NCBI RefSeq assembly: GCF_003334405.1
Contig: NZ_QOWM01000001.1
Length of the DNA: 64,000 nt
Reading direction: 5' to 3' (one strand)
Source of the DNA: Escherichia coli
Lineage (GTDB): Bacteria > Pseudomonadota > Gammaproteobacteria > Enterobacterales > Enterobacteriaceae
Below, piece after piece: positions 15,886 to 15,977 of the stretch (positions within the stretch are counted from its first letter, which is position 1; every line of letters starts with the position of its first letter). Made by a program: the position numbers and the translations under genes. Under the pieces are notes generated by a model. It searched no databases. It had not been told where the DNA came from and was given only the letters and a program-made list of their open reading frames with translations.

Positions 15886-15977
15886 TGTTTAATTTACTAA
15901 ACATGGTTTGGTCAGCATAGCATCATGTTGTGCGGATAAACACCTGCTATTTTAATATTTGTTACAGTTGCTAAACA
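15886..15977. promoter_or_regulatory. two NAD-box (NadR operator-like) palindromes upstream of nadB
   Basis: TGTTTA-N6-TAAACA at about 15886-15903 (perfect) and TGTTAC-N6-TAAACA at about 15960-15977. Confidence 0.55.

Follow-up and report, generated by a model that had tools for sequence, protein, structure and literature searches.

Positions 15886-15977 of the 64,000-nucleotide stretch of Escherichia coli DNA analysed here (the window) are the NadR-controlled regulatory region of nadB, an ordinary region of a kind that has been described before. With a probability of roughly three in four, its two NAD boxes would divide their labour as follows: the box next to the gene is the primary operator at an extended -10 promoter with a short leader, and the second box, further upstream, is an auxiliary operator that is occupied cooperatively. 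The finding matters little beyond annotation, yet it corrects the placement of the operator, which with a short leader would span about +5 to +22 of nadB. Besides, it leaves three modest residual points, namely an auxiliary half-site in helical phase with the primary box, the Enterobacteriaceae-wide absence of a Shine-Dalgarno (SD) sequence from nadB, and a possible overlap with distal rpoE promoters.

Over 15700-16400 the sequence matches E. coli K-12 MG1655 at 100% identity, and every one of the 5,426 complete E. coli genomes contains this segment. An open reading frame together with the RefSeq annotation of the identical MG1655 record places nadB, which encodes L-aspartate oxidase (540 aa), at 14257-15879 on the minus strand, with its ATG start codon at 15879-15877. 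According to the RefSeq annotation, rseD (the rpoE leader peptide) occupies 16135-16290 and the ATG of rpoE lies at 16288. Both NAD boxes fall within the 408-bp intergenic region between the divergent nadB and rpoE genes. Two side observations concern the rpoE half of this neighbourhood. An imperfect 21-nt inverted repeat at 16109-16152, whose arms are 76% complementary and 2 nt apart, spans the rseD ATG (16135) and could form a hairpin in distal rpoE transcripts or represent a protein-binding site. A sigma-E-type promoter sequence, GGAACTT-N16-TCTAA (16177-16204, plus strand), lies inside rseD, upstream of rpoE and more than 200 bp away from the NAD boxes.

PMC2330245 (citing Penfound & Foster 1999, Gerasimova & Gelfand 2005) gives TGTTTA-N6-TAAACA as the NadR operator consensus and names nadB among the enterobacterial NadR targets. 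In Salmonella, EMSA and ChIP-qPCR experiments, which did not distinguish the individual boxes, showed NadR binding to a fragment of the nadB promoter, and deletion of nadR raises nadB mRNA levels 8-10-fold, with derepression also being visible in a promoter reporter (PMC12421817). The supplement of Leyn 2016 reports its NadR data as regulon counts without site-level detail, and our literature search returned no paper combining NadR, nadB and ChIP-exo. The original prediction of two NadR-type NAD boxes upstream of nadB, one of them perfect and about 7 bp from the start codon, agrees with this literature and with the sequence: both boxes match TGTTTA-N6-TAAACA, nadB is repressed by NadR (PMC2330245; PMC12421817), and the box nearest the gene has no mismatch and is separated from the start codon by a 6-nt gap.

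This proximal box (15886-15903; TGTTTAATTTACTAAACA, or TGTTTAGTAAATTAAACA in nadB sense) is the known NadR operator of nadB. It lies at -24 to -7 from the nadB ATG, and an exact TGTTTA-N6-TAAACA occurs once in the window, compared with 0.01 expected. We found it to be an 18-bp inverted repeat in the 5' region of an NAD-biosynthesis gene, and it is conserved among enterobacteria. A scan taking one genome per species collected 80 Enterobacteriaceae nadB loci, with NadB proteins 84-98% identical, and 78 of the 80 loci were scanned for NAD boxes; the alignment, drawn from Enterobacteriaceae, joined the window with 77 loci to give 78 distinct 170-nt upstream sequences. The proximal box was detected in 77 of the 78 loci scanned. 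Across the Enterobacteriaceae loci it begins 20-26 nt upstream of the ATG, leaving a box-to-ATG gap of 2-8 nt, and in the 78-sequence alignment its half-sites are 100% and its spacer, GTAAAT, 98.5% conserved. As an observation in its own right, this spacer (15892-15897) is near-invariant across genera, yet the nadA and pncB boxes of E. coli carry GCATAT and TTGTAC, respectively. Its near-invariance may reflect a second constraint, e.g. a function in the leader or the reading of the spacer by NadR.

Conservation upstream of the proximal box points to a promoter of the extended -10 type, and the alignment between the boxes retains a conserved GTGCTATGCT. In 76 of 78 taxa the element TGnTAnnnT precedes the box by 10-11 bp, and in the window the predicted extended -10 of nadB reads TGcTATGCT (15914-15922, minus strand). 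Within the 78-sequence alignment, conservation is complete (100%) at T1, A2 and T6 of the hexamer and reaches 97% at the TG; hexamer positions 3-5 vary (TATGCT, TATTCT, TATGGT, TACTCT, TAATCT and others). Such a pattern, with T1, A2, T6 and the TG conserved, characterizes the extended -10 element of sigma-70 promoters. The hexamer, present in 77 of 78 taxa, is the sole positionally conserved TAnnnT within 100 nt upstream of the proximal box. Besides, the A at -28 from the ATG is 100% conserved, the C that follows it reaches 92%, and the triplet at this position is AAC in 52 of 76 taxa. Taken together, the extended -10 and this fully conserved A lead us to infer that nadB transcription starts at about 15907 on the minus strand, at an A located 7 nt past the -10 hexamer and at -28 from the ATG, which would put the ATG at +29.

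The -35 region of this predicted promoter appears weak. A conserved GTG at 15941-15943 (minus strand; column identity 0.92-1.0) occupies the -35 position and looks like a weak -35. Next to it, an A-tract at 15945-15953 on the same strand (AAAATAGCA in E. coli, consensus AAAAAAAAC) covers about -46 to -38 from the predicted start, its core A's reaching a column identity of 0.96-1.0. This is where a proximal UP-element subsite would be expected, and judged by its position the tract may play a UP-like role. A third, isolated TGTTTA half-site can be read from the sequence at 15937-15942 (minus strand), coincident with the predicted -35 hexamer; it is found in the window and in the E. whittamii locus (L003), but among the non-Escherichia sequences shown it is missing throughout and the consensus is GTGCTA-like.

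A generic scan of 15800-16350 under a strict two-hexamer rule returned no sigma-70 promoter or terminator. Since this rule needs two good hexamers, it is blind to an extended -10 promoter with a poor -35, and with no hit from the scan the promoter call is one made purely from conservation. No nadB start site was listed in the start-mapping supplements of Kim 2012, Yan 2018, Mendoza-Vargas 2009 and Ramachandran 2012, and the promoter strings that Shimada 2014 assigned to the nadB-rpoE spacer are computational and uninformative for the nadB start.

The position of the start decides how the proximal box is to be read. It had been argued beforehand that only a long nadB leader would bring the box onto a promoter, and that it would otherwise overlap the ribosome-binding region. 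As a statement about the DNA, the overlap with the ribosome-binding region is true, but a long leader is not needed for promoter overlap: the conserved extended -10, 10-11 bp upstream of the box, and the invariant A at -28 indicate that the leader is probably short, not long, and a short leader itself places the box on the promoter. The predicted leader measures ~27 nt and is mostly operator transcript. With such a leader the proximal box would come to lie at about +5 to +22, inside the region occupied by RNA polymerase, where there is no conflict with ordinary transcriptional repression.

A long leader would result if the nadB promoter used the hexamer TAAAAT at -77 to -72 from the ATG and transcription started near -65. 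The distal box would then overlap the -35 hexamer and spacer as the main operator, and the proximal box, at about +40 to +58, would act as a roadblock. In E. coli, TGTTTA-17 bp-TAAAAT is readable and the surrounding A-rich tract is conserved. However, the other genera have a simple run of A's here and no TAnnnT, and it is this lack of conservation that disfavours the distant start. Moreover, no -10-like hexamer is positionally conserved there, compared with 77 of 78 taxa in which such a hexamer precedes the proximal box by 10-11 bp, and the box that is perfectly conserved is the proximal and not the distal one. We therefore hold a long nadB leader to be quite improbable.

A short leader that lacks an SD sequence and consists mostly of operator would also explain why the proximal box appears to sit on the ribosome-binding site. 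Judged by anti-SD duplex energies over 15880-15907 (minus strand) of the window and the corresponding upstream stretches of the other loci, none of the 78 Enterobacteriaceae taxa has an SD sequence upstream of nadB; the median energy is +0.7 kcal/mol with no value at or below -4, compared with a median of -4.1 for the open reading frame background of the window. These features lend some appeal to the idea that the proximal palindrome acts at the RNA level, as a leader hairpin or a protein site that occludes translation initiation, either instead of or besides being a DNA operator: the palindrome fills most of the predicted leader, which is SD-less in all 78 taxa, and its spacer is conserved to 98.5% although the nadA and pncB boxes of E. 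coli use other spacers. Yet a hairpin of 6 A/U base pairs has little stability, shuffled sequences fold as well as the leader does (z = -0.45), and the leader has no Rfam match at E <= 1; on the last two results, a role of the palindrome as an RNA element was rejected. NadR is, on the other hand, a helix-turn-helix (HTH) DNA-binding repressor whose deletion derepresses both nadB mRNA and the promoter reporter (PMC12421817), and a dimeric protein binding to DNA accounts for the strictly palindromic consensus. Action at the RNA level is thus hardly credible to us.

The distal box (15960-15977; TGTTACAGTTGCTAAACA, or TGTTTAGCAACTGTAACA in nadB sense) is a less regular element. Its start-to-start distance of 74 bp from the proximal box in E. 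coli is as the original prediction had it, but the description as a near-perfect copy was generous: in nadB sense it reads TGTTTA-GCAACT-GTAACA, with one perfect half and two mismatches that both fall in the other half (4/6), so the inverted repeat is realized only in part. The site lies at -98 to -81 from the nadB ATG and at about -70 to -53 from the predicted start, with its centre near -61.5. Sites with two mismatches or fewer occur 9 times in the window compared with 2.27 expected from shuffles, which indicates that shuffles underestimate the background; for the 408-bp intergenic region, the calculated chance expectation is roughly 0.015-0.05. A NAD-box-like sequence with a single mismatch, TGATTACAACCGTAAACA, is found at 36127-36144, inside an open reading frame of 496 aa (35138-36628), and is most likely due to chance.

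Within E. coli by itself the distal site reaches only weak significance, and it is conservation across genera that supports it. The left half, TGTTTAG, is exact in 68 of 78 taxa and carries one mismatch in the remaining 10. Column identity is 0.98 in the left half, 0.78 in the right half (degenerate, RCAACA-like) and 0.63 in the spacer, compared with about 0.55-0.62 in the surrounding intergenic DNA. The spacing from TGTTTAG to TGTTTAG amounts to 73-74 bp in 75 of 78 taxa, or about 7.0 helical turns, as for two operators in helical phase. One perfect half-site and the conserved spacing together suggest an auxiliary, cooperative operator, and the alignment suggests a distal site that is weak, plausible in this role, and conserved.

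It is instead conceivable, if unlikely, that the distal site does not function as a NadR operator and that only the proximal box mediates control, the upstream sequence being either a chance match or conserved for rpoE promoters or another protein. Its two mismatches and a chance expectation of 0.015-0.05 comparable sites for the intergenic region would allow for this, and so would the features of the opposite strand, where a sigma-70-like TTGTGC-17-TTTAAT (15928-15956, plus strand) and a weak, sigma-54-like GG-N10-GC (15934-15947, plus strand; 6/11 consensus mismatches) would direct a start bordering the box, at about 15960-15964. The start of rpoE P2/P3 would lie at about -327. Six promoters have been described for rpoE, including an overlapping sigma-54 (P2) and sigma-70 (P3) pair that shares one start (PMC6358824), and the two motifs may be these overlapping P3 and P2 promoters. 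As a candidate, a sigma-54 promoter located between the boxes in rpoE sense was rejected, given the 6/11 mismatches and the lack of conservation even within Escherichia. Against a distal site without a NadR function stands that its conserved 7-mer, TGTTTAG, exactly repeats the half-site of the proximal box and that its phase of 73-74 bp with the proximal box is fixed across genera. The rpoE-strand motifs do not follow the same pattern: between the boxes, a GG-N10-GC in rpoE sense is found in 14 of 78 taxa, where its position varies, and even the other Escherichia loci L002-L004 lack it at the K-12 position; a TTG...TAnnnT in rpoE sense occurs in 17 of 78 taxa, though it is kept in L002-L004.

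In the model that we favour, with the proximal box as primary operator and the distal box as its auxiliary, NAD-bound NadR, an HTH repressor, would sit on the proximal box at about +5 to +22, within the downstream part of the RNA polymerase footprint, as at lac O1, and block RNA polymerase binding or promoter escape. Repression of nadB would accordingly be transcriptional and not translational. The distal box, just upstream of the UP-like A-tract, would be a low-affinity operator that is filled cooperatively and tightens repression, either through a DNA loop between two NadR units or through interference with alpha-CTD/UP contacts. For Haemophilus influenzae NadR, a probable tetramer, described as heterogeneous, has been reported (as cited in PMC7221760); by analogy, a tetramer would be compatible with the bridging of two operators.

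More tentatively, and in sum rather doubtful, three further roles could hold at once: the distal site might be a true auxiliary operator that cooperates with the primary one over seven turns through a DNA loop enclosing the nadB promoter, the primary operator might double as an SD-less initiation leader, and NadR on the distal site might, in E. coli, dampen the divergent distal rpoE promoters. The leader role of the primary operator would in that case explain the invariant spacer. If true, NadR at the distal site would link NAD status to sigma-E expression.

Among well-studied repression systems, the arrangement resembles lac, with O1 at +11 and the auxiliary O3 at -82, and gal, with OE and OI, in that a strong operator just past the start is accompanied by a weak one upstream of the promoter, an integral number of helical turns away. 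NadR belongs to a different repressor family, however, so that this likeness concerns a possible working mode and not membership, and looping by NadR is hypothetical. The predicted promoter itself is like extended -10 (TGn) sigma-70 promoters with a poor -35, given its TGnTAnnnT with invariant T1, A2 and T6 and its upstream A-tract; it differs from them in that it is predicted here from conservation and was not called by the two-hexamer scan. The closest relatives are the NAD boxes of nadA-pnuC and pncB, which share the same 18-bp palindrome placed on, or just downstream of, a -10-like hexamer: in the MG1655 record, the nadA box (TGTTTAGCATATAAAACA, -90 to -73) overlaps TATAAA, and the pncB box (TGTTTATTGTACTAAACG, -47 to -30) begins 17 nt after TATACT. 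Compared with these operators of the NAD regulon, the nadB region shows no essential difference and is a member of the same set.
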